Both the position numbers and the translations under genes were made by a program. The notes under the pieces were generated by a model, which made no database searches, was not told the DNA's origin, and was given only the letters and a program-made list of their open reading frames with translations. Positions 1,115 through 22,217 of a stretch of DNA of 64,000 nt are shown here, piece by piece. Each line of letters starts with the position of its first letter. The stretch's first letter is position 1. Location of the stretch: the NCBI RefSeq assembly GCF_964213995.1, contig NW_027590731.1:124001-188000 (forward strand), written 5' to 3'. This stretch comes from Mustelus asterias. Taxonomy: Eukaryota.

Positions 1115-2098
1115 TCAGTTTAAACCTCCTTGCATGGCCTTAGCAAATTTACCCCCCAGGATATTGGTCCCCTTCTGATTAAGGTGTAGACCATCCTTCT
1201 CATAGAGGTCACACCTTCCCCAGTACGAGCCCCAATTGCTTAAGTACCTGAACCCCTCCCTCCTGCACCATCCCCTCAGCCATGAATTCAAACCTTCCCT
1301 CTCCCTATTCCTCTCTAAACTATCCCGTGGTACAGGCAAGAGTCCAGAGATAACCACTCTGTCAGTCTTGGCCTTTAGTTTCCACCCCAACTCCATAAAT
1401 CCCTGCCTAATATCCCCTTCCCCTATCCTCCCTATGTCGTGTGTCCCCACATGTACAATAACTTGTGGTTTATCTCCCTCCCCCCTAAGAGTCCTGAATA
1501 CCCTGTCAGACACATCCCGGACCCCAGCCCCTGGTAGGCAACACACCAACCCTGAGTCCCTACCTTTAGTTCCGACCCTCCTATCTGTCCCCTTAATTGT
1601 GGAGTCCCCAATCACAAGGCCCAGTCTTTTACAGCCCCTAACCACCTGAGCTTTCTCACTCGGCTCACCCCCAGAGATCTGCTCTCTATGCTCAGTTGAT
1701 TCCTCCTCAACTGTAGCCTCCAGCACCGAAAACCTATTATGGAGGGGAACCGCCCCAGGGGATTGTCTTCCCGAATGCTTCTTACCCCTCCTCCTGGCAT
1801 TGACCCAAGCCTCATTTCTAGGAGTTACTATTTCTCTATAACTCCTATCAACTTCCACCTCCGCCTCCCGAATTATGCGGAGTTCCTCTACCTCCCCTTC
1901 CAGCTCCTTTACACGCTCCTCCAGAAGCTGCAATCTAATGCACTTCTTACAACTAAAATCTCCTGAAACACTACTGGATTTCCTCACCACATACATCCCA
2001 CAGGAGATGCAGCATACTGCCTGAACTGCCATCCCTGAAGCCATTACCAGCAAGAAAAAAAAGAAAACAAAAAAAAAAACTTCCCCACACTTCCCCAA
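1115..2098 (-). CDS. CR1 ORF1p (zinc finger/coiled coil + SGNH esterase)
   Basis: 327-aa ORF: CISCGM..CKKC, LEERVKELEGEVEEL, VIGDS, VHVGTHD, DGLHLN; true start probably an internal Met. Confidence 0.9.
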   Translation of the reverse strand: MGKCGEVFFFVFFFFLLVMASGMAVQAVCCISCGMYVVRKSSSVSGDFSCKKCIRLQLLEERVKELEGEVEELRIIREAEVEVDRSYREIVTPRNEAWVNARRRGKKHSGRQSPGAVPLHNRFSVLEATVEEESTEHREQISGGEPSEKAQVVRGCKRLGLVIGDSTIKGTDRRVGTKGRDSGLVCCLPGAGVRDVSDRVFRTLRGEGDKPQVIVHVGTHDIGRIGEGDIRQGFMELGWKLKAKTDRVVISGLLPVPRDSLERNREREGLNSWLRGWCRREGFRYLSNWGSYWGRCDLYEKDGLHLNQKGTNILGGKFAKAMQGGLN

Positions 2099-2320
2099 CT
2101 GTCACTCTCCACTGCAGCCCGAGCAGCACTCCCTCACTGAGACACCAACTGTCACTCTCTACTGCAGCCCGAGCAGCACTCCCTCAGTGAGACACCAACT
2201 GTCACTCTCTACTGCAGCCCGAGCAGCACTCCCTCAGTGAGACACCAACTGTCACTCTCTACTGCAGCCCGAGCAGCACTCCCTCAGTGAGACACCAACT
2301 GTCACTCTCTACTGCAGCCC
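2095..2320. repeat. 50-bp tandem repeat (~4.5 copies) in CR1 5'UTR
   Basis: gtcactct recurs at 2101, 2151, 2201, 2251, 2301; units nearly identical. Confidence 0.95.
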
Positions 2321-2323
2321 TGA

Positions 2324-2715
2324 TCAAGCTGTCCAATGCTTACAGTCACTCAGGTGTATCCACCTTTCCTGCCCTTTCACCTTCACCGCGGTTGGGGTCT
2401 GTAGCAGAACTTGGAAGGTTCCTGTCCAGCGCGGTCCTAGTTTGGGTCGTTCCCAGTCATGAATCAGCACCCAGTCCCCGGTTTCGACTCCTTCCCAATC
2501 TCCGTCCTTGTCGGGTGGAGGCCTGGTAGATTCCTTCACCTGAGTATGTAAAAACTTGAGACATAGTCAATTGTATAAAATATTGCTGGAATTGGTCAGA
2601 CATGAGTGCAGATCTATCTGGGGAGGAGGAGGTTGAGCGCTATCCTACGGGGTTCTAAGTGGGCGCCCATATATTATCTCAGCGGCATTTAAACCGGTAC
2701 CGGTATACGGGGGTT
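2324..2715 (-). mobile_element. Endogenous retrovirus/LTR pol remnant, integrase C-terminus
   Basis: TGLNAAEIIYGRPLRTP and KLGPRWTGTFQVLLQTPTAVKVKGQERWIHLSDCK match retroviral integrase core end and C-terminal domain; stops present. Confidence 0.8.
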
Positions 2716-3823
2716 CTGATAAATGAGTAGGGGCGGTATCCAAGAAGGTGGCGAGATTAAGGACGGAACAAAAGGCAAAGGTCAATGGAAGGAGATTCAA
2801 AAGAGGATGCAAGTCAAAGTAATGGAGACTTTTGGATGAGGTTCTGAAACACTACTGTGAAAGGACGTAGAGGGATTTAAACATGAATGAGAACGTTAGA
2901 TTTGCAATACAGCAGCAAAAGCAAATCAGGGAAGATGCAATGGATGAGTGGGACATGATACTGGCAGCAGAATTTTAAATGAGCTAAAGATAACAGGAGG
3001 CAAAAAATGGAAAGCTAGCCAGATAAGGTCGTGATAATTGCATTGATAAGGGATCAGCAGCAGATGGACCAAGGCACACAATGTCAAAAATATCAATGAT
3101 TCTCAGGAAATTCAAAGGGCTGATACTATTACATAGCTCCTCACAAGCAGAAATGTGACACCACGGAACAACTTACCACACACCTCATACTTCTTTTTCG
3201 CAAACAACAGCAACTTATATATGCTCCTAAGTCCCTTTAACATAATACATCATTCAAAAGCAGTTCAAAGCAGCACTGTAAAAAAAAGTCAAGAGCTAAT
3301 TTCTGCCACTGTAACAAAATTACTGCAAGACAACCCAGAAATATTTTGGTGAATCTCATAAATTGACCTTTGAAGATCTACTGACTTGGTTTTCCGACTG
3401 CTTTTGTGGCAGAAGCAAAAACAAACAGCAGCTGGAAAAAAAGGGTTGCAGCCAAACTTAATCAACTCCAGCTTGCTGCTCTTAGCACAACCACAATTTC
3501 TCAGAACCCTCACGTAAGTATCATGTAACTCCATTCGCCAATGCACCATATAAGTTAGAACTTACCATATCCGATCCATATACCATCCATAAAGAGATCA
3601 ACGTTCTGAACCTCTGATACTTTCCATCCCACTGCATCCATTGGAATCCGCACTATTAATCCTAAACCCTTATGGAACACTCCACCACAATTATTCTCAA
3701 ACCAAACCTTGGTCAATCATCCAAACTGACATCAGGATACATTAGGATGTCTTTGTCCACAATTTAGAGAATCTAATTGTACATTACTAATCAGGAAATT
3801 CAAAGGGCTGATACTATTACATA

Positions 3824-3952
3824 GTATGTATGGTAGGGAGTGGGATAGCATGGTAGGGAGTGGGATAGCTTGATCTTGGTTTCAGATGAAGGTCGGCACA
3901 ACATCGTGGGCCGAAGGGCCTGTTCTGTGCTGTACTGTTCTATGTTCTATGT
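3824..3952 (+). mobile_element. CR1 3' end fragment
   Basis: ggcacaacatcgtgggccgaagggcctgttctgtgctgtac + (gttctat)n tail, same family as the tail at 4413-4480. Confidence 0.85.
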
Positions 3953-4500
3953 TAATCCAGGGAGGAATCTTACCTGATTAGCTTGTTCTGAATTCTCTCT
4001 AAATTGTTCTTTCATCCAATTCTCACAGACACTACACAAGGTTCTATTCTGCTGTTTCCCATCATTAATTGCCTTGTCTTTAATAATTTGATGAATGATT
4101 TTAGCATGTCTTTCTAATGCAGTCACCACATGTTGATCAGCAAGTTATCAGAACAATGATCCTGAAGCATCATTCTGATTATTGTGATTTACCTCAGCCA
4201 TTACTGGCTTAACCTGCTGGATTCATGTTTGAAGTTTGTGGTCGAGATTTGCCAAATCACCAGTCTTAACCATGGACTCTGCTGCACAATAAACAGTTGC
4301 TAAAACATTCATTAAATCCCTGCTCCAAGGACCTTTGGAATCACCAAACCATTCTTGCACCTCATTTGTTACTTCTTGATTTCACAACCTTTGTGCTCAA
4401 TGAAAATATAATGAGAACATAGAACATAGAACGGTACAGCACAGAACAGGCCCTTCGGCCCACGATGTTGTGCCGAGCATTGTCTGAAACCCAGAACAAG

Positions 4501-6894
4501 CTATTTCCTCCCTATCATGCCGAAGTACTCCATGTGCCTATCCAATAGCATCTTAAATGTTCCTAAAGTTTCTGACTCCACTATCCCTACAGGCAGCCCA
4601 TTCCACAACCCAGCCACTCTCTGAGTAAAAAACCTACCTCGGACATCCTTCCTATATCTCCCACCGTGAACCCTATAGTTATGCCGCCGAGTTACCGCTC
4701 CATTCACCCGAGGAAATAGTCTTTGAACGTTCAGTCTATCTATCCCCCTCATCATCTTAGAAACCTCTATCAAGTCTCCTCTCAACCTCCTCCGCTCCAA
4801 AGAGAAAAGCCCAAGTTCCCTCAACCTTTCCTCATAAGACCTACCCTCCAAACCAGGCAGCATCCTGGTGAATCTCTTTTGCACTCTTTCCAGTGTCTCC
4901 ACATCCTTCTTGTAGTGAGGTGACCAGAACTGCACACAATATTCCAAATGTGGTCTCACCAAGGTCCTGTACAGTTGCAGCATAACCCAACGGCTCTTAA
5001 ACTCAAACCCCCTGTTAATGAACGCCAACACACTATAGGCCTTCTTCACGGCTCTATCCACTTGAGTGGCAACCTTCAGAGATCTATGGATATGAACCCC
5101 AAGATCTCTCTGTTCCTCCACATTCTTCAGAACCCTACCTTTGACCCTGTAATCCACATTTAAATTTGTCCTACCAAAATGAATCACCTCGCATTTGTCA
5201 GGGTTAAACTCCATTTGCCATTTTCCAGCCCAGCTCTGCATCCTATCGATATCTCTTTGCAGCCCACAACAGCCCTCCACCTTATCCACTACTCCACCAA
5301 TCTTGGTGTCATCAGCAAATTTACTGATCCACCCTTCAGCCCCCTCCTCCAAGTCATTTATAAAAATTACAAATAGCAGGGGACCAAGCACTGATCCTTG
5401 TGACACTCCGCTGGTAACCGGTTTCCAGTCCGAAAATTGTCCATCCACCACCACCCTCTGTCTTCTGTCAGATAGCCAGTTACCTATCCAATCGACCAAA
5501 CTTCCCTCTATCCTACACATCCTTACTTTCTTCACAAGCCGACCGTGGGGGACTTTATCAAACGCCTTACTAAAATCCATGAATATGACAACAACTGCGC
5601 TACCTTCATCTACACACTTAGTTACCTCCTCAACAAATTCTATCAAATTTGTGAGGCAAGACTTGCCCTTCACAAATCCGTGCTGACTATCCCGGATTAA
5701 GCTGCATCTTTCTAAATGGTCGTAAATCCTATCCCTAAGGACCTTTTCCATCAACTTACCGACCACCAAAGTAAGGCTAACCGGCCTATAATTACCAGGG
5801 TCATTTATTTTCCCTTTCTTAAACAGAGGAACCACATTCGCCACTCTCCAGTCCTCTGGCACCACCCCTGTGGACCGTGAGGCCGCAAAGATCAATGCCA
5901 AAGGCTCTGCTATCTCATCCCTTGCCTCCCAAAGAATCCTAGGATATATTTCATCAGGCCCAGGGGACTTGTCAACTTTCAGTTTATTCAAAATTGCGAG
6001 TACATCTTCCCTCCAAACATGTACTTCCTCGAGCCTATCAGCCTGTGACACCATCTCTTCCTCAAAAACATGGCCCCTCTCCTTGGTGAACACCGAAAAA
6101 AAGTATTCATTCATCACCTCTCCTATCTCTTCTGACTCCATGCACAATTTCCCACTGCCGCCCTTGACCGGCCCCAACCTCACCCTGGTCATTCTTTTAC
6201 TCCTCACATAAGAGTAAAAGGCCTTGGGGTTTTCCTTGATCCGACCCGCCAAGGACTTCTCATGCCCCCTCCAAGATCTCCTAAGCCCCTTTTTCAGCTC
6301 ATTTCTTGCTAACTTGTAACCCTCCATCGAGCCAACTGAACCTTGTTTTCTCAAGCTAACATACGCTTCCTTCTTCCTCTTGACAAGACATTCCACCTCT
6401 TTTGTGAAGCATGGTTCCCTCACTCGGCCATTTCCTCTCTGCCTGGCAGGGACATTCCTATCAAGGACACGCAGTATTTGTTCCTTGAAAAAGTTCCACT
6501 TATCATTAGTGCCTTTGCCTGACAATTTTTGTTCCCATCCTATGCTTCCTAATTCCTGCCTGATTGCATCATAATTACCTCTCCCCCAATTGTAAACTAT
6601 GCCCTGCCGTATGGCCCTCTCCCTCTCCATTGCAATAACAAAAGACACCGAATTGTGGTCACGATCTCCAAAGTGCTCTCCCACAACCAAATCCAACACT
6701 TGGCCCGGCTCATTTCCCATTACCAAATCCAATGTGGCCCCACCTCTTGTCGGCTTATCCACATATTGTGTCAGGAACCCCTCCTGCACACACTGCACAA
6801 AAACTGCCCCATCCGAACTATTCGACCGATAAAGATTCCAATCAATATTTGGAAGGTTAAAGTCCCCATGACAACGACCCTGTGACCTCCACAC
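4501..6894 (-). CDS. CR1 ORF2 (end of APE + reverse transcriptase), separated from its N-terminus by frameshift
   Basis: GDFN, PTRGGATLDLV, NYRPVSLT, DFSKAFDKVPH, QGSVLGPLLF, KFADDTK, RPHLEYC. Confidence 0.95.
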   Translation of the reverse strand: MWRSQGRCHGDFNLPNIDWNLYRSNSSDGAVFVQCVQEGFLTQYVDKPTRGGATLDLVMGNEPGQVLDLVVGEHFGDRDHNSVSFVIAMERERAIRQGIVYNWGRGNYDAIRQELGSIGWEQKLSGKGTNDKWNFFKEQILRVLDRNVPARQRGNGRVREPCFTKEVECLVKRKKEAYVSLRKQGSVGSMEGYKLARNELKKGLRRSWRGHEKSLAGRIKENPKAFYSYVRSKRMTRVRLGPVKGGSGKLCMESEEIGEVMNEYFFSVFTKERGHVFEEEMVSQADRLEEVHVWREDVLAILNKLKVDKSPGPDEIYPRILWEARDEIAEPLALIFAASRSTGVVPEDWRVANVVPLFKKGKINDPGNYRPVSLTLVVGKLMEKVLRDRIYDHLERCSLIRDSQHGFVKGKSCLTNLIEFVEEVTKCVDEGSAVVVIFMDFSKAFDKVPHGRLVKKVRMCRIEGSLVDWIGNWLSDRRQRVVVDGQFSDWKPVTSGVSQGSVLGPLLFVIFINDLEEGAEGWISKFADDTKIGGVVDKVEGCCGLQRDIDRMQSWAGKWQMEFNPDKCEVIHFGRTNLNVDYRVKGRVLKNVEEQRDLGVHIHRSLKVATQVDRAVKKAYSVLAFINRGFEFKSRWVMLQLYRTLVRPHLEYCVQFWSPHYKKDVETLERVQKRFTRMLPGLEGRSYEERLRELGLFSLERRRLRGDLIEVSKMMRGIDRLNVQRLFPRVNGAVTRRHNYRVHGGRYRKDVRGRFFTQRVAGLWNGLPVGIVESETLGTFKMLLDRHMEYFGMIGRK

Positions 6895-7387
6895 CTATCC
6901 ATAATCTGCTTAGTAGTTTCTTGCTCCACATCTCTATTACTATTTGGGGGCCTATAGTAAACTCTTAAAAACGTGACCACTCCTTTCCTATTCCTAACCT
7001 CAGCCCATATTACCTCTGTAGGCAGATCCCCTTCGAAATGCCTTTCTGCAGCCGTTACACTCTCCTTGATTAACAGTGCCACTCCTCCACCTATTTTACC
7101 AGCTATCCTACACTTCTTGAAACATCTCCACCCCGGAACTTCCAACAACCATTCCTGTCCTTGTTCTACCCATGTCTCCATAATGGCCACAACATCGTAG
7201 TCCCAAGTGCCAATCCACGCCCCAAGTTCACCTCCCTTATTTCAGATGCTCCTTGCATTGAAGTAGACACACTTCAAACCACCTTCTTGTCTGCTGGTAC
7301 CCACCTTTGACCAGGATACCCTTCCCAGTACCTCACTACACTCACTGACCTCTGGACTACAACTCCTTTTCCCATCCGCCTGACAAA

Positions 7388-8330
7388 TTAGTTTAAATCC
7401 CCCCGAAGAGCTGTAGCAAGTTTCCCTCCCAGGATATTGGTGCCCTTCTGGTTCAGGTGCACCCCGTCCTGTTGGTACAGGTCCCACCTTCCCCAGAACG
7501 TGTTCCAATTATCCACATAGCTGAAACCCTCCCTCCTATACCATCCCTGCATCCAGGTGTTTAACTGCACTCTCTCCCTCTTCCTCAACTCGCTATCCCG
7601 TGGCACCGGCAACATACCAGAGATGACAACCTGCTTTGTCCTGGCTCTCAGCTTCCACCCAAGCTCCCTGAATTCCTGTTTTAAGTCCCCGTCCCCTCTC
7701 TTACCTATGTCTTTGGTGCCGACGTGCACCACGACTTGTGACTGTTGCCCCTCCCCCTTTAGAATCCTGAAGACACGGTCGGAGATGTCACAGACCCTGG
7801 CATCCGGGAGGCAACATACCATCCGTGAGTCTCTCTTGTTGCCACAGAACCTCCTATCTATCCCTCTAACAAACGAGTCCCCAATAACTATAGCTCTACC
7901 GCTCTCCCCCTTTCCCTCTGAGCCACAGGGACGGACTCAGCGCTGGCGATCTGGTCACTGCGGCTTACCACCGGTAGGTTGCCCCCCTCACCTGTATCCA
8001 AAGAGGAATACTTGTTGCTAAGGGGAACAACCACAGGGGATCCCCGCCCCGACTGCTTCCTCCCAGCGCCTCTCACTGTCACCCATCTATTTTCATTCCC
8101 TGGAGCAACTATATCCCTGAAGCTTGTGTCTATGGCCCTCTCTGCCTCCCTGATGACCCTAAGCTCATCCAACTCCAGCTCCAGCTCCCTAACGCGGTCT
8201 TGGTGGAGCTGCAGATGGGTGCACCTCCCACAGGTGTAATCAGCAGGGACACTGACTGAGGTGAGGTGCCCCTCACCTCAAACATTCTGCAGGAGGTACA
8301 TTGCACTGCCTTCACTTCCATCCCCTCCAT
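7388..8330 (-). pseudogene. CR1 ORF1, split over three frames
   Basis: ORFs 8130-8330 (CTSCRM), 7888-8172 and 7388-7822 (VHVGTKD, DGVHLN) align to ORF1 at 1115-2098. Confidence 0.9.
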
Positions 8331-8991
8331 ATGAAACTTACTGCTACAAAGAAAAAGAATTGCTCCAATGGAACACTGAACCCTTTTTCCCCTTCCTCAG
8401 AGTGCACTGGGAAAGAACAAGGATTCGAAATTGAATGGTAACAGAATTAATTTAAACCTGCCCTGTGTCGCCCGTTTCCGCCTAAGCCCTGCGAGCCAAA
8501 GCCCTTACAGCTCTCACTCTGCTTGCCAGTCAGTCCACAGCCCGCTCCCGACGCTGCCCGTTGTATAGTGCGGCCTGCTTTTTATGCTCCAGTCGAACAA
8601 AGAGGTCGAACCCCCCAGGTAACTGACTTTTATACTAAGAACTCAACCTCCCAGAATCCCCTTCAGCTGACGTCACTTCCCTTAATTTAAAACCTTGAAA
8701 AAAGCCCGCGAAACAAACAAGGAATACAACAAATAAATAAATGTTCCTGACAATCGTCAGTGGAAACAGCTTGTCCCTTTCTGCTCGATGAAACGGCCCT
8801 CTCCCATGTTGGGAGAAGCGGGAAACCACTAAATCGCAGCAACACTGTGGGGAGTAAAGTAGTCAAAGGGGTTTGCATAGTATTGTAAACGATCTGGTCA
8901 TGTTGTAGTTCTCGACTATGTTTTTAAAAAAAAACAGAATTGGGGTTGGATATATACAGCACTCGCTGACACCCTAATATAGAGTGTCTTC

Positions 8992-9064
8992 GTCTAAGTG
9001 GCGGAATTCGTTATTGCGTTCGACTTTAAGCAAATGGTTGGTGGCTCAGTACCATCCAGAGGCG
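8992..9064 (+). pseudogene. tRNA-Asn relic
   Basis: Degenerate match to tRNA-Asn; upstream flank paralogous to that of 14287 and 51162. Confidence 0.6.
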
Positions 9065-9724
9065 GTGGTTGTACTTTCATTTTCCCCATACGCATTCATT
9101 GTCGCGCAGTTCCGGTTTGTGAACCGAGGCAACAATAAAAATATTTCTCAAGTGTTGCCGCTTGACTGTTGTCAGGTGTTGCCGACATTATTTATTTGAT
9201 GAATATTGATATCATACATATCACATGGTATAATATATATTCATTTCAAATATGCAATTAAAGTTAAGAATTAGAGTCTTGGCTGGATGTGTTTGTCTGT
9301 CAGTTCTCCGGTGAGTCCTCATCTGAGACTGGGAAACAATCTCTCAGTATTCTGTAGTTCAATAAGATTGCCTCTCAGTCTTCCAAACTCCAGGGGATTT
9401 CAGCCAAATTTAGACAGCCTCTCATCCCAGGAGAACTCTCTCATCACAGGAACCTACCAAGTGGACCGTCTCCAATGGAAGGATAGCCTTTTTTTTCAAA
9501 GAAAAGCTTTGTGGATATCAAAAACGCACCGAATATTTCACACTTGCTCCCAACAAAACCCTGTATAAATGTAGATTGGCGTGTTTATTCTGATTCAGCA
9601 ATCTGCTGGCAAAAAGATCAAAATGCCATTTCCCTTCCTATTGTTTGCTGCACCACCATGCTATCTTCCTGCCTTCCTTGTACAAACACACCCAAATCTC
9701 TTCCAACATAAACGCTTATAACTA

Positions 9725-10080
9725 GGAAAGACGATGGCCTACTGGTATTCTCGTGAGACTATTAATCCAGAAACGCACCGAATTTTATGGGGTCCTGGTT
9801 TTGAATCCTGCCACGGCATGTTGTGGAATTTGTTTTCAATAAAAACTATCTGGAATTAAGAATCTACTGATGACCATGAAACCATTGTCGATTGTCGGGA
9901 AAAAAAACTTGGAGTTCGGTAATGTGCTTTCGTGAAGGAAATCTGCCGTCCCTTATCCGGTCTGGACAACACTGACTCCAGAGCTGTAGCAAAGTGGTTG
10001 ACTCTCAACTGTCCTCGGGCAACCAGGATGGACAATAAATGCTGGCCAGCCGGCGACGCCCATTTCTAATTAATTAAAAA
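9725..10080 (+). mobile_element. tRNA-headed SINE (Deu/SacSINE-like)
   Basis: tRNA-like head, body tctggaattaagaatctactgatgaccatgaaacc shared with 38375-38725, A-rich tail. Confidence 0.7.
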
Positions 10081-10147
10081 ATAACGAGGTCACCTTTACA
10101 AACATTGCCTGCTCTTTCTCCGGTCATGAACAAGAGAATATATTTTT

Positions 10148-10442
10148 GGGCAACATGGTGTCACTGCTGCCTCACAGCGCCAGGGACCCAGTTTCAATTC
10201 CCGGCATTGGTTACTGTCTGTGCAAAGTCTGCATGTTTTCCCCGTGTTGCGTGGGTTTCCTGCGGGTGCTCCTTCTTATTCCCACAGAGTGAACGATGCG
10301 CTGGTTAGGTACATTGGCCATGCTAAATTAGCTGTCAATTTACCCGAGAAGGTGCCGGTTCTGCCGACGAGGGAATTGTCACTGAAACTTCATTGCGGTG
10401 TTAATGTAAGCTTAATTGTGGGACTAATAAATAAACTTTAAA
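10148..10442 (+). mobile_element. HE1-like V-SINE
   Basis: cactgctgcctcacagcgccagggaccc...gcgtgggtttcctgcgggtgctcc V-domain. Confidence 0.75.
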
Positions 10443-11394
10443 CTGTCCAACCTTACACCCGATCTGCTGGAACCACTGAGCTATGGAGCGAATTCTTGCG
10501 CCCAGTGCGGAGTTAGTGTATCAGCATCAGTGGAGCGAAGAAGGGGTTGAATTTTCAGGTGGGTGACATTTGATGGATGTGGAAAAATCCGAGGTGGAGA
10601 ACAAGGAGTTAATCGATGAGACTTGAAAGAGGAAGAATTAGACATGTGTGTCAGTTGCTTTTGTGATAAATGCCTGCCGTGCCATCCTTCTTCAGAGTTT
10701 ACTGTTATTGTTACATCTCTAATACAATTCATACAGCTGAAGATTACTCTTGCTTCTCCCTTAACAGACACTGTGAGGCGTGTTTTCGTTTAATGAAGAG
10801 TTAAATAAGAAGTTATTCACTACTAGCCTGGGACTCCAACGCGAGACATGGCGCCGAAACCTGACCGCGGGACGCCAGGAAAGCTAATATCAAAGATTTG
10901 AAATTCGTTGATAACCATTTCTGTCTCCACCGCTTCATTTCAGGTCAATTTCGCTACTGACATTGTCACACAGGCATTCCAACATCTTATAACCATCTGA
11001 AACAAATGATGTCTTCTTCCTTTATGTTCAGATACTTTCAACTCCAGAAATGCAGTACGCGCTGAGCAAAGTGCTCTGTTTAGTTCACAGTTTGTCATCA
11101 GTTCCGGGCCATAGCGGTGGAAACATTGACTCTGAACCACTAGACCACCCAGGCTCCACTATCACTGGTTCAATGTTGCCTTGTCCACCATTCCTGGTGT
11201 CATGGAATCCATTCTGCCTTGTTCTCTATCACAGAAATTCCTTTTGATCCTTTCGCTGAGTGATTCCTCACTTTACAATCAGAAAATACTTGGAATACTC
11301 AGCAGGTCAGTTCATGTTTAGTGACAAACACGCAAATAATTCCAGTCGTCGAATCCCTCTGAAATTAAAAGCATTTGGATTTTTTTTTTCTGTG

Positions 11395-11602
11395 AAGGCA
11401 AAATACTGTGGATGCTGGAACCTGAAACAGAAATAGAAAAATGCTGGAAAATCTTAGCAGGACTGACAGCATCTGTAGAGACAGAATAGAGCCAACGTTT
11501 CGAGTCCGGAGCTCTGACGAAGGGTCATGCGCACTTTAAACGTTGGCTCTATTCTTCCTCCACAGATGCTGTCAGTTCAGTTCAGATCTTCCAACATTTT
11601 CA
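11395..11602. repeat. Hairpin-forming Penelope-derived short repeat
   Basis: tgctggaaaatc..gacagcatctg..aatagagccaacgttt / aaacgttggctctatt..cagatgctgtcag..ccaacatttt inverted arms. Confidence 0.65.
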
Positions 11603-11616
11603 CTATATGATGAAAG

Positions 11617-11688
11617 TATTTCTGCCGGGATTAAACGGCGGATCTTTCACGTGTAACGTGAATGTGACAACCACTACACCACAGAAAC
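11617..11688 (-). pseudogene. tRNA-Val(TAC) pseudogene
   Basis: GTTTCTGTGGTGTAGTGGTTGTCACATTCACGTTACACGTGAAAG...; anticodon stem intact, T arm disrupted. Confidence 0.75.
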
Positions 11689-11871
11689 ATTGCGATGCAC
11701 TGATTCAAGGAAACTGGTTCCCCAAACCCGTCAATTGCCAACAATAATTTACATTTGAGTTGCATGGAATTCGTGTGATAACAGAGATATTTCGTAAAGT
11801 TAATTAACTGGACATATAGCGGTGATTAGATTCGATCACATGCTTCAACTCATATGACTGCCTTGTAACGA

Positions 11872-12047
11872 GTCTCACAGCACCAGGTTAAAGTCCAACA
11901 GATTTATTTGGTAGCACGTGACTCACGTCATGAAAGGGCAGTGCTCCGAAAGCTTGTGCTGCCAAATAAACCTTTTGGACTTTAACCTGGTGTTGTGAGA
12001 TTACTTACTGTGCCTATCCCAGTCCAACGCCGGCAACTCCACATCAT
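11872..12047. repeat. Head-to-head Penelope terminal repeat fragments (hairpin)
   Basis: ctcacagcaccaggttaaagtccaaca..tttatttggtagcac / gtgctgccaaataaacc..ttggactttaacctggtgttgtgag; same sequence as 3' end of PLE at 19200-19320. Confidence 0.8.
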
Positions 12048-12312
12048 TACTGCCCTGAACTCATCAATGCTACCAGCAGAACCTATTGATGCCGTATCTG
12101 GTATTGCAAGTGAACAGAATCAATGGAGTAGAATTGGGTCACATGACCCATTGAGCCTCCTCCACCACTGAATCGAGGCAGATCCACAGCCTCAACCCCA
12201 ATTTCCAAGTTTATCCCGATAGCCCTTCATTCACTTAGATTCTAGCAACTTTCCACCTCAACCTTCAATGTCTTCATGAATTGAAAATCCACAGACCTCT
12301 GTGCAGCTCCAG

Positions 12313-12602
12313 AATTGATGCAAGATGGCACCCGAGCGAGGCAACCTCTTGCAAGCTGTGCCCAGCATACCTTCTAACTCTATCTTTTACTCTCGTTCTC
12401 TGCTTCTAAAACTTCATTCTAACTCTTTTAAACTCTCTCACAATGCTTCAATTCAATTTCTTACATCCCAGCTATGACTGTAACACTACACTCTGCACTC
12501 TCTCGTTTCCTTCTCTATGAACGGTATGCTTTGTCTGTACAGCGCGCAAGAAACAATACTTTTTATTGTATGCTAACATATGTGACAATAATAAGTCAAA
12601 TA
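12313..12602 (+). mobile_element. Short non-autonomous Rex/Babar derivative
   Basis: caagatggc-type 5' end joined to a 3' end matching the reverse complement of 44350-44475. Confidence 0.6.
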
Positions 12603-12849
12603 ATTCCAAAGACTCACAAGCCTTTGAGTGAAGAAATATCTCCATACCTCAGTGATAAATGGCTGAAACATTAACCAGAAAATGTAAGCCCAGAGTACCT
12701 TACTGAGGCACTTTTGCCAATGTCGAACCGGAACATCACTCATTTGCCATGGCTAATCCATCCAGCCTGCATCAGCTGCACCGTGAGTGTGACAGTGGAA
12801 GCAGAAAAGCAACAGTATGCCAGCGGCGACTTTGCTGAGGGTATTTTTT

Positions 12850-13810
12850 TCAATAAATGGTGAAGAACAAATTAACATTGTGTCTGCTCCAATCCAGTTC
12901 ATATGCAACAGCGATCAAGAATCGGGGAAAATTCAAAAAAATATTAATTTCGATAATGTTTCGATCTTATTTTGAATCGGGGAGCTCATCGTATATGAAA
13001 TGAACATGTTAACTCCTACAATCCAGGAACTCTGCTCATGACCAATGTGACCGGCCGAGAATATCAAACAGTGCAGTCTGATTGCAATTTAAATCCTTGT
13101 TTTCTTGAATTATAAGTCGTTTGCCAACCTTAGCCATGTGGCAGAGTCATTGATCTAACATCAGTTTCAGAAAATAACATTTGTCCCGAATTTTATCTCT
13201 GTCTCCATGAATGCAGTTGCAGAATATTATTCAAGCATTGGGGAAGTGTAAATGCCACATGGCTGTGAGATAATGTGATTCCTTAATATTTAATAACACT
13301 TAGAGATGGGACAGCTGCTTTGAAAAGGTTTTATCAGTTTTTTTGAACACAAGGATCAGTATACTTCAGGAACACAGGTGACACATCGAAGTATTTAGAA
13401 TTTGATGCGTGTCCACAGATTCTGCCAAACCTGCTGAGAATTTCCACCATCTAATGCTTGTATTATAAATACAGGTTTTATCAGGACGTAAAACACACCG
13501 CAAGACGGCAACGATAAATGAAATAGTCCCACAAGCTGTTCACGTGTAACTTTCAATTTCCAAAACCCACCAACCTCATCATTGCTGATCCTGTGAAACG
13601 TACCTTGTCAAACACGGCAGGCATTCATCTCTCAAAGAAGTGAAACGCCTCAAATGTGAACTATCTGCTCTCAATCTCAGGACTTTGCAATTATAAAAGC
13701 AGCATTCTGGTGAAAGTTTAACTCAGTCCTCATTCCACTGATCTTTGCCGACTTGCTGTGTATTTCCCTCATTGAAAACATTTCAGGTTGGGACAGACAG
13801 CTTCCTGATC
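12850..13810. repeat. Segmental duplication, inverted paralog of 27765-28735
   Basis: Long co-linear reverse-complement similarity (ORFs 13677-13859 minus and 27726-27974 plus share SQPEM.SMREIHSKSAKISG); contains a tRNA-Val relic. Confidence 0.9.
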
Positions 13811-14286
13811 TATCTGAGAAAGAAGAGGAATGGGCAAGAAAATGGAAACCCAAGATCAAACATGGGTTAAAGTTTCGAGTTCAGTTATTGAGTTTAACAA
13901 TATTTGAAATATATAAATTGTTACAAATAATATGTTGGAGATATATGTTCAATAAACTAACGTCGGCTAACAGTAGAGGCAGAAACACACGATAAGTTTT
14001 TTTTTAGTGTCGCCCAAGGACTCAGTGACACTCAAAAACCGAGAGACAATGAAAGCAATCAAGGACTCTATCAAACGGCCCTTTTCCATGTTAGGAGAAG
14101 GGATTAACCATTACACCACAACAACACTGTGGGGTAAAATAATAAAATATACATGTTTAGATTTCTGAACGATGCCATAATTTGGTCTTTCTGTGTCAGG
14201 TTTGGTGAAAATTGAATTGGCGTCGAACTTGCAGCCAACACGCTGTCACCCTGATTTAGGATGCCATGTAAGCTTGGGATGCGTCA

Positions 14287-14303
14287 GTCTCTGTGGCGCA
14301 ATT

Positions 14304-14336
<33 letters not shown>

Positions 14337-14360
14337 ATGGTTCAAGACCATCCAGGGACG
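14287..14360 (+). tRNA. tRNA-Asn(GTT)
   Basis: GTCTCTGTGGCGCAATTGGTTAGCGCGTTCGGCTGTTAACCGAAAGGTTGATGGTTCAAGACCATCCAGGGACG; compensated T-stem GATGG/CCATC; T8 terminator at 14370-14377. Confidence 0.92.
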
Positions 14361-14545
14361 GGGTTTCACTTTTTTTTCCTCTCCATCTGCTTTAGACCAT
14401 AAGACCATAAGACATAGGAGCGGAAGTAAGGCCATTCGGCCCATCGAGTCCACTCCACCATTCAATCATGGTTGATTTCAACTCCATTTACCCGCTCTCT
14501 CCCCATAGCCCTTAATTCCTCGAGAAATCAAGAATTTATCAATTT

Positions 14546-14712
14546 GCGTCTTCAAGACAGAAATTGATAAATTCTTGATTTCTCGAGGAATTAAGGGCTA
14601 TGGGGAGAGAGCGGGTAAATGGAGTTGAAATCAACCATGATTGAATGGTGGAGTGGACTCGATGGGCCGAATGGCCTTACTTCCGCTCCTATGTCTTATG
14701 GTCTTATGGTCT
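14546..14712 (+). mobile_element. Young 5'-truncated CR1 3' end (mirrored at 14394-14545)
   Basis: Reads identical to 61354-61520; (gtcttatg)n tail. Confidence 0.92.
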
Positions 14713-14745
14713 AAAGCAGATGGAGAGGAAAAAAAAGTGAAACCC

Positions 14746-14769
14746 CGTCCCTGGATGGTCTTGAACCAT

Positions 14770-14802
<33 letters not shown>

Positions 14803-14819
14803 AATTGCGCCACAGAGAC
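14746..14819 (-). tRNA. tRNA-Asn(GTT), mirror copy (probably the ancestral one)
   Basis: Exact reverse complement of 14287-14360; its flank continues into sequence paralogous to 50850-51160. Confidence 0.92.
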
Positions 14820-15228
14820 TGACGCATCCCAAGCTTACATGGCATCCTAAATCAGGGTGACAGCGTGTTGGCTGCAAGTTCGACGCCAATTCAATTTTCA
14901 CCAAACCTGACACAGAAAGACCAAATTATGGCATCGTTCAGAAATCTAAACATGTATATTTTATTATTTTACCCCACAGTGTTGTTGTGGTGTAATGGTT
15001 AATCCCTTCTCCTAACATGGAAAAGGGCCGTTTGATAGAGTCCTTGATAGATAGTTTGATAGAGTCAGACTGTTCCCACTGACTGGGCTCAGTAACAGAG
15101 GACTCGGATTGAAGATCATGAAATATTTGCATTTATATAGAACCTATCCCGACAAGCGGACGTCACAAAGCACTTTCCAGTCAATGAAGGGCAGTTTTAA
15201 TTGAAAAAAAAATCAATTAAGCGCGAAA

Positions 15229-15299
15229 GCAGTCTTTCGACTTGAATGCAGAAACGTCGTGACCTGTAGTCAAATGCTCCATTCCTAAGCTATATTCCC
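15229..15299 (-). pseudogene. tRNA-Cys relic
   Basis: GGGAATATAGCTTAGGAATGGAGCATTTGACTACAGGTCA..., paralog of 28772 and 50703. Confidence 0.6.
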
Positions 15300-16416
15300 T
15301 TAATGCCAAGCTTCCGTTTTGTCGGTCGTTAGTCCTCTGTCTCGCGTGGTCTATACTTATGTTTGCTCCTCTGTGTGCGTCACTGTGCTTACGTACCCCA
15401 AGGGTGTGAATGCGTTTTTTTTAACCATCACAAACTCTATTCACTTACTTTATAAATCGTATTGGTAAATGTACAGAAGATGGCAAAAGGCTGAAAGTTG
15501 CGAGATGAAATTGACCTTTTCTGTGATTTGTGAGTGAAGGGTGCTTATTGAATGAGTTCCCGTCTGTTCCATTGTGCAAGATGATTAAAAGTTTTCTTTG
15601 ATCAACATTTAAACAGACAGCGGATTCACTCGGTGTGATGGTGGTCCCAGTTCTATATCTGCGATCACAGCACCAGTTCATGTCACTTACTGTAAACCCA
15701 ATATTTCTAATAGGTTTGACGTCCCAATATTTCTAATACGTTGGATGTTTTATCTAATTTACTTCATTTTATATTTCATTATTTTCATCTCAGATCTATT
15801 TCCACCAGAGGTAAGTCTCTCTTTCAAAATGTTCTGTTCAGGTTGAACATAAGTTAGTCCTTCATCCAGTGGCAACAACGATTACTTTTCGCTGCCGTAT
15901 AAAAGCGGCAATGAGGTGAAGTAGTCACACAAGCTGCTCATGTGTTCCTCTCAATTTCCAAAATCCACCAACCTCATCACTGCAGCTCCTGTGTAATCAC
16001 TGTACAGTACACCCACCGGCTCCCTATTACCCACAGGACACGCGACTGCTTCAAAGATCTTGTGAATGGTCTCATGCTGCGGTGCAAACATTCTGTGATA
16101 CTCTGCTTTCCTCACTCTCAGGCCATGGGATACACAGTACTTGTTCATTTATCTCTCCTGAATTGAGCCTTATCAGAGCCCTTTCCTGTTGTTATTCTTT
16201 CTCGCTCCTGGATTTCACTTGTTTAAAACTTCCTACATCTCCAACCTTTACCAGTTGAAAAGAAAAGTGATGCAGGTATAAGAGGAGATTCCTTTCCCTG
16301 TGTGCACATGCTGCCTGGCTTCCTGAGTTTTTCCAGCGCTCCCCCTTCCACTGCAGTTGTCAGATCAGATTTGTAAGGCAATATAATATCTGTATTTGAG
16401 GCGACCTTACAGCAGT

Positions 16417-16506
16417 GGCTCGTTGGTCTAGGGGTATGATCCTCGCTTTGGGTGTTATGATTTGCAAGTTTGCGAGAGGCCCTGGGTTCAACTCCCAAAT
16501 GAGTCC
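16417..16506 (+). pseudogene. Intron-containing tRNA-Pro(TGG), decaying copy (intron 16453-16470)
   Basis: GGCTCGTTGGTCTAGGGGTATGATCCTCGCTTTGGG[TGTTATGATTTGCAAGTT]TGCGAGAGGCCCTGGGTTCAACTCCCAAATGAGTCC; T-stem and acceptor substitutions. Confidence 0.85.
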
Positions 16507-17224
16507 CGTCGTTGTTCGCAGTGGCGAAGTCTTGCTCATTTCTTTGCCGTGGACAGGGCAGGATGAGTTTTCTCACGGTTTGGTTTGGGAAACTGCCTCT
16601 CAAGTAATTCGAGATGTTTTCAAAAGTTGACTATGCTTTTCAACATTCTCTTTGTCCCTAGTCAACGGTTCAAGGACCCAATCCTTGTGGGCTCCGGCCG
16701 CTGGCTTTGTCGACATTGTTATTCATTCATTGGATGTGGCTGACTCCCCCACTATCTGTCACTTTGTTTCTGTGTATCGACGTCAGTCCCTTTCACTGTC
16801 TCAGTCTCTCTTTGTGCCTCTATAAACTTTCCATACTTTGCTCTTATTTCCCTCTGTTCTCGCGCTGTTTGTGGAACCAAGATTCACTGGATTGATTGTT
16901 GTGATGAGGCAGTTGCCCTTGGAGGAGAGATTCATTGCTGTTGCCTTGTTCTCCCTGGGGTTTGGGATAATGAAAAGTAATCTCATTGAAAAGTCTGGAA
17001 CGGCGAGACTGTTTGACAGTGTACATGCTGCGAGATTGTTTCCACCGCCCCTCTTCCCTCCACGCCCCCTCCCCCCCCCCCCCCCGCAACACCCCGTCCG
17101 ACCCCCACCCCCACTCCTCCCCCGCCTCTTGCTGGAGTCTAGAGTGCTTTGAACTGGGCTCACATTATCCGGATGGTGTGTCAACCATTTCGGACTGAGT
17201 TGAGGAGACAATTCCGCACTCAGA

Positions 17225-19322
17225 GGCCATCGTCATACTGAACAGAACGGATTACTGCAAAGAAGTGTACCGACAACTGAAAAACGAGGAACACTACAGA
17301 CAGTTACCCACAGATCCGACCAAAGAACACACCCGTCAACTCAGCACTCCGATCAAAACCTTTGATTCGGACCTTCAGAGCACCCTCCGTGCTCTCATCC
17401 CACGTACTCCCCGCGTTGGAGATCACTACTGCCTCCCAAAGATACACAAGGCAAACACACCCGGCCGTCCCATCGTATCGGGCAATGGGACCCTGTGCGA
17501 GAACCTCTCTGGCTATGTCGAGGGTATCCTGAAGCCCATGGTACAAAGAACCCCCAGACACTACGGATTTCCTACGGAAACTCAACACACATGGAACAAT
17601 TGAACTAGGAACACTCCTCGTCACAATGTATGTCTCGGCACTCTACACCAGCATCCCCCACGATGATGGCATTGCTGAAACGGCCTCAGTACTCAACGCC
17701 GACAACTGCCAGTTTCCAGTTGCAATTTTACAACTCATCCGCTTCATCCTGGACCACAATGTCTTCACCTTCAACAACCAGTTCTTCATCCAGAAACACG
17801 GAACAGCCTGGGGACAAAATTCGCACGTCAATATGCCGACATCTTCATGCACATGTTCGACCAAGACGTCTTCAACGCACAGGGCCTTCAATCGATGCTA
17901 TACACTAGATACATCGATGACATTTTCTTCCTTTGGACTCGTGGTGAACAATCACTGAAACAACTATATGATGACATCAACAAGTTCCATCCAACCATCA
18001 GGCTCACCATGGACTACCCTCCGGAATTGGTTGCATTCTCGGACACACGCATCTCCATTAAGGACGCTCGCCTCAGCACCTCACTGTACCGCAAGCTCAC
18101 GAATAACCTCACGATGCTCCACTTCTCCAGCTTCCACCCTAAACACGTTAAAGAAGCCCTCCCCTACGGACAAGCCCTCCGAATACACAGGATCTGCTCG
18201 GATGAGGAGGATCGCAACAGACACCTCCAGACGCTGAAAGAGGCCCTCATAAGAACAGGATATGGCGCTCGACTCATCGATCGACAGTTCCAACGCGCCA
18301 CAGCGAAAAACCGCACCGACCTCCTCAGAAGACAAACATGGGACACGGTGGACAGAGTACCCTTCGTCGTCCAGTACTTCCCCCGAGCGGAGAAGCTACG
18401 GCATCTCCTCCGGAGCCTTCAACATGTCATTGATGAAGACGAACATCTCGCCAAGGCCATCCACACACCCCCACTTCTTGCCTTCAAACAACCACACAAC
18501 CTCAAACAGACTATTGTCCGCAGCAAACTACCCAGCCTTCAGGAGAACAGGGACCATGACATCACACAACCCTGCCACAGCAACCTCTGCAAGACGTGCC
18601 GGATCATCGACACGGATGCCATCATCTCACGTGAGAACACCATCTACCTGATACACGGTACCTACTCTTGCAAGTCGGCCAACGTTGTCTACCTGGAAAG
18701 GCTGTCCCGAGGCACGGTAATTTGGGGAAACCATGCAGACGCTGCGACAATGGATGAATGAACACCGCTCGACAATCACCAGGCAAGACTGTTCTCTTCC
18801 TGTGGGGGAGCACTTCAGCGGTCACGGGCATTCAGCCTCTGATCTCCGGGTAAGCGTTCTCGAAGGCGGCCTTCACGACAGCGCAGAGTCGCTGAAATGG
18901 AGCAGAAATGGATAGCCAAGTTCCGCACACATGAGGACGGACTCAACCGGGATATTGGATTCATGTCACACTTTCGGTAACCCCCACAGCTTGCCTCCTG
19001 GACTTGCAGAATCTCACTGGCTCTCCTGTCTGGAGACAATGCACATTTCTTTAACCTGTGTCTAATGCTCCCTCCACGCACATTGTCTGTATCTTTGAGA
19101 CTTGGCTGGCTGCAAGGATTGGCATTCTAATCAGTATTCTGTAACTTGATTTTCTGTCTCTGTGTGCCTTGTTTGCGAGCAGATATCCACTCCATCTGAC
19201 GAAGGGGCAGCGCTCTGAAAGCTAATGGCATTTGCTACCAAATAAACCTGTTGGACTTTAACCTGGTGTTGTTAAAACTCTTAGTGTGTTTACTTCAGTC
19301 CAACGCCGGCATCACCACATCA
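17225..19322 (+). mobile_element. Penelope-like element, 5'-truncated (RT + GIY-YIG), frameshifted
   Basis: YCLPKIHK..PGRPIVS, SALYTSIPH, RYIDDIFFLW, TSLYRK, CHSNLCKTC..YSCKSANVVYL, TLRQWMNEHR; PLE terminal repeat at 3' end. Confidence 0.93.
17847..18761 (+). CDS. Penelope RT C-terminus, linker and start of GIY-YIG (disrupted ORF fragment)
   Basis: 304-aa ORF with RYIDD and SFHPKHVKEALPYGQALRIHRICSD. Confidence 0.85.
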   Translation: MHMFDQDVFNAQGLQSMLYTRYIDDIFFLWTRGEQSLKQLYDDINKFHPTIRLTMDYPPELVAFSDTRISIKDARLSTSLYRKLTNNLTMLHFSSFHPKHVKEALPYGQALRIHRICSDEEDRNRHLQTLKEALIRTGYGARLIDRQFQRATAKNRTDLLRRQTWDTVDRVPFVVQYFPRAEKLRHLLRSLQHVIDEDEHLAKAIHTPPLLAFKQPHNLKQTIVRSKLPSLQENRDHDITQPCHSNLCKTCRIIDTDAIISRENTIYLIHGTYSCKSANVVYLERLSRGTVIWGNHADAATMDE

Positions 19323-21193
19323 GGTGAAAAAAGGCCAGAGGAACAGCCATCGCTCGATAATATCTTGGGTGACCATCTCCAGAGGCCAGAGCAGCCAGTC
19401 AAAAGAACATTTGCCTCTACAGCAGTTCTCCACCCCTGACAGATTAAAATTCGCTTAAGAAAACTATCTAACAGAAGGATACGGAGTTAGAAAGACCTTA
19501 CAGACACCGCACAATTACTGAAGAACTCCAAAATCTTCTGAATCCATCGAGGCTGTTTGTATAATTTATTTGAGAGTGACTGAAATTCTGTTATTACAGT
19601 TTTGGTAATGAATGTTCACAGTCTTATTCGAACTGCATTTCAGTCGAACCGTACCTTACTTAACATGTTTTACTTGTTTACTTAAAGTTCTTGGTTATTT
19701 GAATAAAATAGCTTGTTAATTATTCACTCAAAGTGAATGACAGGCATTTTTATCATTAATAAGCCTCTGAACGTTAATTAAAAACAGTTAGTAGTTTCAC
19801 AAATAGTTTTTCCAGATTACGAGGTGAGATAAAGGGGATGAGCCTCTGTATCATAACAGTATGGTAATTTACTGAATAACAGCAAGACTGGCAAAGTTTG
19901 GACAATATTTCACTGTTACAGAAGGGCACAAAGTAAATCTATGTCGGGAATATAAGCAGAAACAGGAATAGCGGGAGTCCATTTGGCTCGGGGTGCTCTC
20001 AAACCTCCACACTTTCAATTGGCAGGTAAGTTTCCAGAACAAGTTTACTGCCGAAATAATACAGGAGTTTAAATTCAGGGCTTTCACTGCTTGGATTCAA
20101 TTCAATTCCCTGTCTCGATATTGTGCTAATTGTTGTAACTCACACTCAGTTACTAGTTTTAAAAAAGCCATATTAGACTCAGAACCTTAACTCTCTGTCC
20201 GCTTCACATTTGCTGCAAGACCTGCTGAGAACTTCCAGCACTTTATGTTTTTATTTTAACATGAATTACTGGCTTGATCATACACATGAACACAATAAAT
20301 AGGAGCAGGAGTAGACCACTCGGTCCATCGAGCGTGTTCCCGAAATTCAATACCGCTATGGCTGATCTTGGGCTACAACTCAGTTTTTCACCAGCTCCCC
20401 ATATTCCTGAATTCCCCGAGAGGCCAGAAACCTGTCTATCCCAACCTTAAATGTATTCGATGATGGAGCTTCCATAGCTGTCTGGCATAGAGAATTTCAA
20501 AGATTCACAACCATTTCAGTGAAGTAATTTCGCCTTTTCTTAGGCCGAAATGACCAGCCCATTTTCCTGAGACTGTACTGTCGTGGGTTAGATTTCCCGA
20601 CAAGCAGAAGAAATCTCTCAGCATCCATCCTGTCAAACCCAATCAGTCTTGTGTAGGTTTAACGAAATCGCCTCTCATCCTTCCAAACTCCAGAGACTTT
20701 CAGCCCAATTTACTCAGCCTCTCATCATACGACAACTCCCTCATCCCAGGGATCATCTGCTGAACCTTATCTGCACCGTTTCAAATGCAAACACATCTTT
20801 TATTAAATGTGAATATCATATCTGCACAGAATATTCAACATGTGGTCTCAACAAAACCCTGTGCTACTTCAGCAACACCTCATTATACTTGGACTCCAGT
20901 CTGCCGTCAATAAAGACTAAAATGCAATTTTCCTTCCAATCATTGCCTGCACCGACATGCTAGCTTTATGCATTCCTTGTACAAACGCATCTATTCTATG
21001 CTGAATATCGACACTGACCTTTTTCAGCTCTTCAAATGTGCCCTGCTCTTTCTATTTTTTGACGAAGAAGTAAATACCTATTCGCTTTCCAAAATTGCAC
21101 TCGATCTGCGCCTCCACTCATCAAAGCTCCCTATTTCGTCTCCCAGACTCGATTCCCCTTTCCGACAGCTTCTATTAGCTAAACCTTGCTCAT

Positions 21194-21266
21194 AGGCTCT
21201 AGCGAGAATCGAACTCGCGACTCCTGGTTTACAAGACCAGTGTTCTAACCACTGACCTATAGAGCC
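21194..21266 (-). tRNA. tRNA-Thr(TGT), D-stem mismatch (possibly pseudo)
   Basis: GGCTCTATAGGTCAGTGGTTAGAACACTGGTCTTGTAAACCAGGAGTCGCGAGTTCGATTCTCGCTAGAGCCT. Confidence 0.8.
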
Positions 21267-21610
21267 AAATGCTGCAAGGAGCTTCCAGTAAATGCAGCGT
21301 TATCCGTGGATTGAGGACCAGGATGGGATTTGAGGACGGAGATTTTTCATGAATGTGGAAATGTCTGAGGTGGAGAGCAGGAATTTAAAAGGCAGAAGTT
21401 GAAAGTGACATGATTTGACATGTGTATCTTGTATGTACGTGACATATATGTTGTGTGTGTCATGTGGTTCTTCTTCAGAGTTTATCGTTAATGTTACATC
21501 TCTAATTTTTCCAGCTCTGATACAAGTTCATCCAGCTTGGAGATTTAGCTTGTTGTTCCCTTCACGGACGCTGTTTTTATTAAATGAAGAAATGAACAAA
21601 AATTTATTCA

Positions 21611-21672
21611 CTCCGTGACTGGGAATCGAAACCGCGTCACGGCGCCGACGCTGATCACGAGACCCTCAGTGA
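21611..21672 (-). pseudogene. tRNA-Glu-derived relic lacking anticodon loop
   Basis: 62-nt match to tRNA-Glu with ~10 nt missing at anticodon; paralog of 54801-54862. Confidence 0.6.
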
Positions 21673-22217
21673 CGCTGATGTGACAAATTTGCAGTGAGTT
21701 GATCATCTCTGCTGCCATTGCTTCATTTCCAATAAATTTCAGTAAAAAAAGTCACAATGAGGAATGACGGGAAGTGTACATGACAGGATTTGAACCTCAG
21801 TAAGAAAATCCCAATCCATCCCCTGGGCCGGGACTGCAGTCTCAATGTTTGCAATCCTGCTGTTTATTTCGACAGACAGCCATTCAACCGGTGTTCCCGT
21901 TTGTATTCTCTGTCGGAGCAGCTCCACTCCTCCCAGCTTTGACAAAGGGTCATCTGGACTCGAAATGTCAGCTTTCTTCACTCCTTACAGATGCTGCCAG
22001 ACCTGGTGAGATTTTCCAGCATTTTCTCTTTTTGTTTCCGATTCCAGAATCCACGATAATTTGCTCCACTACTTCCACACTCGTTCCTTTACCTCAAAAA
22101 CTGTTTACATTGGTATGTCGCTCCTCTTTCTTCATGCCAAAACGACACAGCACAAATTCTTGCATTCAATCTGAAATGCTGAACTTCAACTGCAGGGACC
22201 AAAGCTCAAACCCATTC

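Follow-up and report, generated by a model that had tools for sequence, protein, structure and literature searches.

A CR1-type insertion in Mustelus asterias with an inverted copy of its own end and of a neighbouring tRNA-Asn gene: a probable case of cDNA snap-back

Fold-back junctions in LINE insertions and the M. asterias locus

Fold-back and templated junctions have been described for several LINE systems. In R2-protein (PRINT) insertions, the 3′ end of the cDNA can prime further synthesis with the cDNA or, more rarely, target DNA close by as template (PMC11371274, PMC11204384, PMC11331408); the resulting antisense strand then becomes linked to the upstream side of the target (PMC11371274). 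According to the available text of these reports, the events were engineered and site-specific, took place in human cell culture, were recorded as junction reads at low frequency and often involved full-length cDNA; the same text describes neither a duplicated gene nor synthesis that passes from the cDNA across the 3′ junction and continues for hundreds of bases into the host. The zebrafish elements ZfL2-1 and ZfL2-2 (L2 clade) carry 5′ extra nucleotides templated from flanking genomic or LINE DNA (PMC4245944, PMC4760211), which the accessible parts of these papers present as several nucleotides holding two ends together. Fold-back inversions upstream of the target, 52–220 bp in length, are reported as rare outcomes of somatic L1 insertion (three cases, 0.3%, plus one combined; PMC10191854); in the available portion of that study it is the upstream target end that folds and not the cDNA, and no element or downstream sequence is copied. 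For L1-mediated rearrangements, the available text of another study describes a TPRT-extended end that self-anneals on downstream DNA and forms a hairpin, which is sealed and replicated into a chromosome-scale fold-back (PMC11702581). Twin-primed L1 insertions have an inverted 5′ segment within the target duplication, and as far as the accessible text goes this segment is a more 5′ piece of the RNA, overlaps by a median of 12 bp and includes neither a mirrored tail nor host flank (PMC12016303).

The locus described here lies in a 64,000-nucleotide stretch of M. asterias DNA (the window, on contig C699; the genome searched was the 3.68-Gb assembly). We put at roughly 0.87 the probability that its 655-bp insert is a truncated CR1 end plus an inverted copy of that end and of 336 bp of flank, made in one cDNA snap-back insertion. 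As in R2 snap-back, one segment (14058–14545) is the reverse complement of another (14561–15048) and is joined upstream, at 14057/14058; priming by the cDNA 3′ end is in our case suggested by the position of the axis on a native stem and by the recurrence of such junctions in the family. The locus resembles the ZfL2 insertions in that a LINE of a related clade with short target duplications has acquired templated 5′ extra bases, but here these amount to 488 nt anchored on an intramolecular hairpin. With the somatic L1 fold-backs it shares an inverted duplication that would have been made while the insertion resolved. In contrast to the sealed L1 hairpin, the extended end would here have come free and been joined again, so that the insertion is confined to one site and flanked by a target duplication. 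A twin-primed 5′ inversion was rejected, as 336 of the 488 inverted bp are host flank and the other 152 bp repeat the sense part.

The literature searched, which left most subscription papers outside, yielded in its available text no natural CR1 case and no gene-duplicating run-through inside a target duplication; the accessible text of a recent preprint (10.64898/2026.06.26.733778) held nothing on fold-backs. The locus differs from the published cases in that the CR1 insertion is natural and that synthesis would have run for 488 nt, past the tail and into host DNA, so that a tRNA-Asn unit was duplicated; the class of mechanism is known.

Palindrome anatomy, empty site and target duplication

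The inverted repeat spans 14058–15048 (991 bp) and was returned by a repeat finder as arms 14058–14552 and 14554–15048. When the arms were paired position by position, every base inside the palindrome was paired except for that at the axis (14553) and those at offsets 6 and 7 (14546–14547 against 14559–14560), and pairing stopped at offset 496. The perfect arms are therefore 14058–14545 and 14561–15048, each of 488 bp with 0 mismatches, around a 15-bp centre, which bears out the first-pass annotation, where arms of this length without a mismatch had been claimed by eye. The centre (14546–14560, plus strand) is native CR1 sequence and is composed of the micro-hairpin GTCTT-C-AAGAC (14548–14558) and two unpaired bases on either side. 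An independent 5′-truncated copy of the same CR1 family elsewhere in the window (61181–61521, plus strand) shows the native sequence around the hairpin and matches the centre from 61354 onward, so that the axis does coincide with the loop of a native micro-hairpin, as had been proposed. The CR1-type end itself (14546–14712, plus strand) is 5′-truncated and comprises 167 bp with the last ORF2 codons (stop at 14626), the 3′ hairpin and a tail of 8-bp repeats. Its reported identity to 61354–61520 was likewise reproduced: 14546–14715 and 61354–61523 agree at 169 of 170 positions, and the mismatch lies past the tail.

The left arm (14058–14545, minus strand), the predicted product of snap-back, is composed of two parts. 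Positions 14058–14393 (336 bp, minus strand) mirror the downstream host flank at 14713–15048 and include the 229-bp leader of the tRNA gene (14058–14286), and positions 14394–14545 (minus strand) mirror the last 152 bp of the insert, tail included. The right arm (14561–15048, plus strand), which would have served as template, consists of the CR1 end and the original flank and is continuous with the ancestral module, where the older similarity runs on (14778–17227 against 51202–48744, 83.6%). At the left junction, 14057/14058, the left flank and the continuation of the template share no base. With 0 differences between the 488-bp arms, the palindrome event is, to judge from the sequence, very recent. 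Arm-to-arm gene conversion was considered on account of four differences from the nearest empty copy that are common to both arms; it is unneeded, as the window has the commonest paralog base at three of these sites and the base at the fourth is also present in two of 19 paralogous stretches. Long palindromes are prone to cruciform extrusion and are unstable, and cruciform formation or instability is plausible at this one.

When the left arm was used to search the genome, 547 candidates yielded 40 scored matches, from which 20 loci were taken: two from this locus and 18 paralogs. Together with an extra stretch of contig C900 (L025), the paralogs make up 19 paralogous stretches, and the site is empty in all of them, with the equivalent of 14057 joined directly to that of 14719 and a single AAAGCA. 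Comparison with these empty paralogs, which join 14057 to 14713 with a 6-bp overlap, identifies AAAGCA at 14052–14057 and at 14713–14718 (both plus strand) as the two copies of a target-site duplication. The insert is thus 14058–14712 (655 bp), composed of the 488-bp inverted copy and the 167-bp CR1 end within one 6-bp target duplication. Neither the duplication nor the empty sites featured in the first-pass annotation; its assignment of the right arm as ancestral and the left as derived is upheld by the continuation of the former into the module and by the absence of the latter from 19/19 paralogous stretches.

Because the target duplication brackets the entire insert and all 19 stretches are empty, the fold-back most likely arose during insertion. 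The earlier annotation had also allowed for a break at the hairpin, and broken ends are known to fold back at short inverted repeats. According to such a scheme, a longer CR1 copy inserted normally and, once the DNA had later broken or a fork had stalled at the hairpin, the end folded back, copied 488 nt and was rejoined with loss of the 5′ part of the element; L1-linked fold-backs, as described in the available text of one study, lend this some precedent (PMC11702581). Since the left junction coincides with the end of the duplicated target, the removal of 5′ CR1 sequence would have had to stop precisely there, leaving no CR1 base and taking no flank base, and the element shows no difference from the commonest young type, which allows little time for a second event. 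We find a later break barely credible.

The nearest empty copy (L003, contig C900) matches the host-flank part of the left arm at 98.8%. This contig and the window are about 99.5% alike over window positions 2,934–21,999 (approximately 19 kb) and about 93% alike beyond, and the C900 copy could be allelic or have arisen by recent duplication.

A fold-back read or amplification chimera carried into the contig would also give identical arms. In keeping with this, the 33-mer at the axis occurs once in the assembly, and among the 24 public read runs listed none held half of the words of the left-junction stretch (best share, 0.37). Empty-site sequence continues from 14057 in contigs or reads of three of the four related-shark runs compared, but these four runs carry fixed differences and so represent relatives or paralogs, uninformative on the left junction. 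As no independent read of this junction was found, the structure rests on one assembly. A fold-back read, however, would not return to the collinear left flank, which it does here exactly at the end of the 6-bp duplication, and both switches would have had to fall at the 5′ junction of the element. The centre is native CR1 throughout, with no foreign bases, and short versions of the same structure are present at two other loci. An artefact is accordingly very improbable.

The CR1-type family and fold-backs on its native stems

The family to which the element belongs is large: the 31 bases before the tail end occur 7,407 times exactly in the assembly. We surveyed the first 90 copies among the matches listed, all of them on contig C1, and over its last 160 nt the CR1 end at the locus was identical to 56 of the 78 copies reaching that far. 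One family copy (L123), which contains the CR1 sequence of the window, has an open frame of 1,015 amino acids with endonuclease (PF03372/PF14529) and reverse transcriptase (PF00078) domains in a single ORF, and three other copies match it at 99.76–99.77% over 2.1–2.6 kb. The family is young, and the frame of L123 is intact. The tail is an 8-bp unit repeated at the element end, and the predicted 3′ hairpin (14640–14712) is modest in stability (−22.2 kcal/mol, z −1.71). Comparison with the Atlas returned unnamed EN-RT clusters only. The family shows the short target duplications and frequent 5′ truncation of the CR1 clade; on the strength of the ORF with endonuclease and reverse transcriptase, the 3′ hairpin and 8-bp tail, the short duplications and a resemblance in motifs, we assign the element provisionally to the CR1 type. 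Penelope-like retroelements can have head-to-head ends in which both arms are element sequence; this option was rejected for the locus, as the element combines an APE-type endonuclease with its reverse transcriptase and most of the arm is host DNA. A 3′ hairpin and an 8-bp repeat tail are among the CR1 traits given in the available text of two papers (PMC8665684, PMC4316615).

The 5′ end was resolved within about 1.8 kb of the tail in 77 of the 90 copies, and the other 13, in which the element reached or nearly reached the edge of the stretch taken, were dropped from the junction survey. A direct match of at least 5 bp was present at 26/77 junction pairs as against 50/770 shuffled pairs. This is in agreement with the peak of 3–5 bp that the accessible part of one study reports for target duplications of L2 and CR1 (PMC4245944), and the 6-bp duplication at our locus is normal for the family.

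From the anatomy of the locus, we infer the following course of priming, fold-back, extension, release and joining. The element would have nicked the target approximately 30 bp past the 3′ end of the tRNA-Asn gene and primed reverse transcription, and the cDNA would have stopped after 167 nt (14546), two bases beyond a 5-bp self-complementary stretch. Its end would then have folded back and been extended from a terminus with a G-T and a C-C apposition, either by the reverse transcriptase of the element or by a host polymerase such as Pol theta, between which sequence does not discriminate. Synthesis would have covered 152 nt of the cDNA, crossed the primer junction and gone on for 336 nt along the covalently linked host strand. 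The new end would then have come free and been connected to the upstream end of the target with no microhomology, a 6-nt stagger giving the duplication. A complete Pol III unit would in this way have been duplicated on the spot, in inverted form and with DNA as the template. All junctions fit this course, which the first-pass annotation had put forward as a CR1 cDNA snap-back on the native hairpin, and the target duplication, the 19/19 empty sites and two further hairpin-centred fold-backs in the family lend it additional support.

The position of the axis points to self-priming. Within 2 kb of a natural copy, only 15 of 3,982 fold registers have a stem of at least 5 bp with a short loop, and the palindrome axis is among them; the comparison is a fair one, as the locus was found regardless of hairpins. 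The cDNA end folds weakly (−1.6 kcal/mol), and its last two bases face T and C without Watson–Crick pairs. These two terminal bases are the two mismatched offsets of the palindrome.

We also searched the whole genome for fold-back junctions at seven stems (six of the 15 and the 3′ stem-loop), such that all axes searched carry stems. Three of the seven gave one match each, namely this locus and loci on contigs C25 and C74, and the remaining four gave no fold-back junction anywhere in the genome. The idea that other palindromes might be centred on this same CR1 hairpin thus yielded no second locus, and fold-backs were instead found on two other native stems. The single-copy fold-back on C25 (L121:1495–1540) has 21-bp arms around a 4-nt loop, 15 nt of the whole being non-native templated sequence, and at that on C74 (L126:1500–1532), also single-copy, nine non-native nucleotides mirror the bases after the stem, as read by eye. 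In both, the foot of the stem is precisely where the junction falls. The L126 insert sits in an older antisense repeat, which reads on across it, and at L121 a few bases of no assigned origin precede a possible target duplication. The 9-nt (L126) and 15-nt (L121) cases would count as ZfL2-type extra nucleotides.

By contrast with these targeted matches, the survey gave cDNA snap-back at 0/77 junctions, with a scan that recovered the 488-bp arm of our locus as a positive control; none was present at L039, a copy truncated one base away from the CR1 end at the locus. Snap-back in this family is thus recurrent but rare, and copying beyond the tail was found at this locus only. As the C25 and C74 cases are short, the run-through into host DNA is a single example. 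At the 5′ junction of L063, a 14-bp perfect hairpin lies at the upstream target end and overlaps four element bases, and it looks like a 14-bp example of the upstream fold-back described for somatic L1. Inverted matches near the L031, L058 and L119 junctions lie by eye in older host repeats and were excluded, and a 9-bp hairpin at L043 was within the control range. A truncation hotspot at the hairpin was likewise set aside, since only one other copy of the 90 ends within a base and the local density of short copies can account for it.

The same final sequence, target duplication included, could be reached by a double template switch of the MMBIR or repair type at the time of insertion. The 3′ end of the upstream target would invade the downstream flank 336 bp away, copy backwards through the flank and the already double-stranded CR1 end, and then switch onto the cDNA end. 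In its favour, the available portions of published papers describe flank-templated extra nucleotides in zebrafish LINEs (PMC4760211, PMC4245944) and templated genomic inserts at L1 insertions (PMC11702581). Two switches are needed, neither with microhomology, and the scheme predicts neither an axis in register with a native stem (15/3,982) nor the two other stem-centred cases. We therefore regard a double switch as quite improbable and favour snap-back of the cDNA.

If cDNA snap-back is correct, the locus would be a clean natural record of a retrotransposition intermediate. For synthesis to run 488 nt from cDNA onto the host strand, the cDNA end must have carried no RNA or have been able to displace it, a hairpin end with mismatches must have been extended, and the joining of the upstream end must have come late. 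The locus also suggests that some unexplained extra 5′ nucleotides of CR1/L2 insertions are short snap-backs, predictable from the hairpins of the element.

The duplicated tRNA-Asn gene and its surroundings

The original tRNA-Asn(GTT) gene (14746–14819, minus strand) was identified by ARAGORN and Rfam and is matched at 74/74 positions in the empty copy L003; its T8 run lies at 14729–14736 (minus strand). The new copy is at 14287–14360 on the plus strand (ARAGORN; Rfam RF00005, 67.7 bits) and is followed by a T8 run at 14370–14377, read from the sequence like that of the original gene. A T run serves as the terminator of Pol III genes, and the one after the new copy is likely to act as such. 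Both copies are full length and score 67.7 bits with no non-standard pair marked; each has an intact cloverleaf, internal promoter boxes and a likely terminator. The claim that either arm holds a tRNA-Asn(GTT) gene, a T8 run and a CR1 tail is thus supported by both programs and by direct reading. As judged from these features, the new tRNA gene is structurally complete and identical in sequence to the original, so RNA reads cannot separate the two.

The content of the left arm also bears on whether RNA was the source of the inverted segment, either by twin priming or because the CR1 machinery had captured a pre-tRNA transcript. Twin priming does yield 5′ inversions in L1, and in the available text the overlap has a median of 12 bp (PMC12016303), whereas 152 of the 167 CR1 bases are repeated at our locus. 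The inverted host DNA comprises the 229-bp leader, the tRNA gene, its T run and the target hexamer, so that neither pre-tRNA nor element RNA can be its source: the piece extends past the T8 to the target sequence of this very site and the new CR1 tail, and no pre-insertion RNA could hold the tail-to-flank junction. Apart from this locus itself, the loci taken from the genome search were all empty paralogs. We consider the likelihood of an RNA route negligible. On the snap-back reading, a LINE can duplicate a complete host gene beside its landing site without the gene ever being in RNA.

Any effect on the host is probably slight, being that of one gene added to a large tRNA-Asn family. Of the 31 exact occurrences of the first 42 tRNA bases in the assembly, two lie here, so that tRNA dosage is hardly changed. 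Both window copies have an A in the T-loop where 17 of the 18 paralogs have a G, the A being otherwise present only in the C900 copy. Because transcription of either gene should stop at its T run, short of the centre, long double-stranded RNA would not be expected from them unless there is read-through. A scan with bacterial promoter and terminator models, which do not apply to Pol III, gave nothing in this sequence. The importance attached to the locus in the first-pass annotation was overstated, as snap-back is a described class of junction and the tRNA has many near-identical paralogs.

More broadly, hairpin-primed snap-back might be a regular part of CR1 insertion in sharks, with run-through past the tail duplicating the downstream DNA of the target in inverted form, but we rate this generalisation as unlikely. 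If true, it would be a DNA-templated counterpart of 3′ transduction, in which promoters are copied along with genes. As the family seems to land often in tRNA modules, it could then recurrently yield new small-RNA genes, together with palindromes that seed inverted rearrangements of tRNA clusters.

The C900 copy of the module has its own 106-bp insertion of the same CR1 family (L003:1918–2023, corresponding to window position 13968/13969), in the same orientation and less than 90 bp from the site in the window. Across the tRNA-module paralogs L003–L020 (59,870 bases) there are two independent same-family insertions, the one in L003 and one common to L005 and L006, against 0.12 expected at the genome-wide density (P about 0.007, a pattern noticed after the fact). 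The family may favour tRNA clusters or be tolerated in them.

The window as a whole is a patchwork of older duplicated modules that are 65–93% alike, among them inverted duplications of 82–93% identity (12845–13813/27760–28729, 14778–17227/48744–51202 and 19859–25267/51208–56566). Three related 91-nt tRNA-like ARAGORN calls (16417–16507, 29966–30056 and 49501–49591; Pro or undetermined), all below the Rfam tRNA threshold, probably represent a disrupted tRNA-Pro carried by the duplicated module. Positions 1–8000 show a strong negative GC skew, and a 50-bp tandem array lies at 2095–2320. At the other end of the window, 62328–62725 contains an exon of the Ig V-set type (Pfam V-set) and, behind it, a recombination signal whose spacer measures 23 bp and of which the heptamer (62687–62693) and nonamer (62717–62725) were read from the sequence; exon and signal have the look of what we take to be a T-cell-receptor-type V segment beside the tRNA modules.
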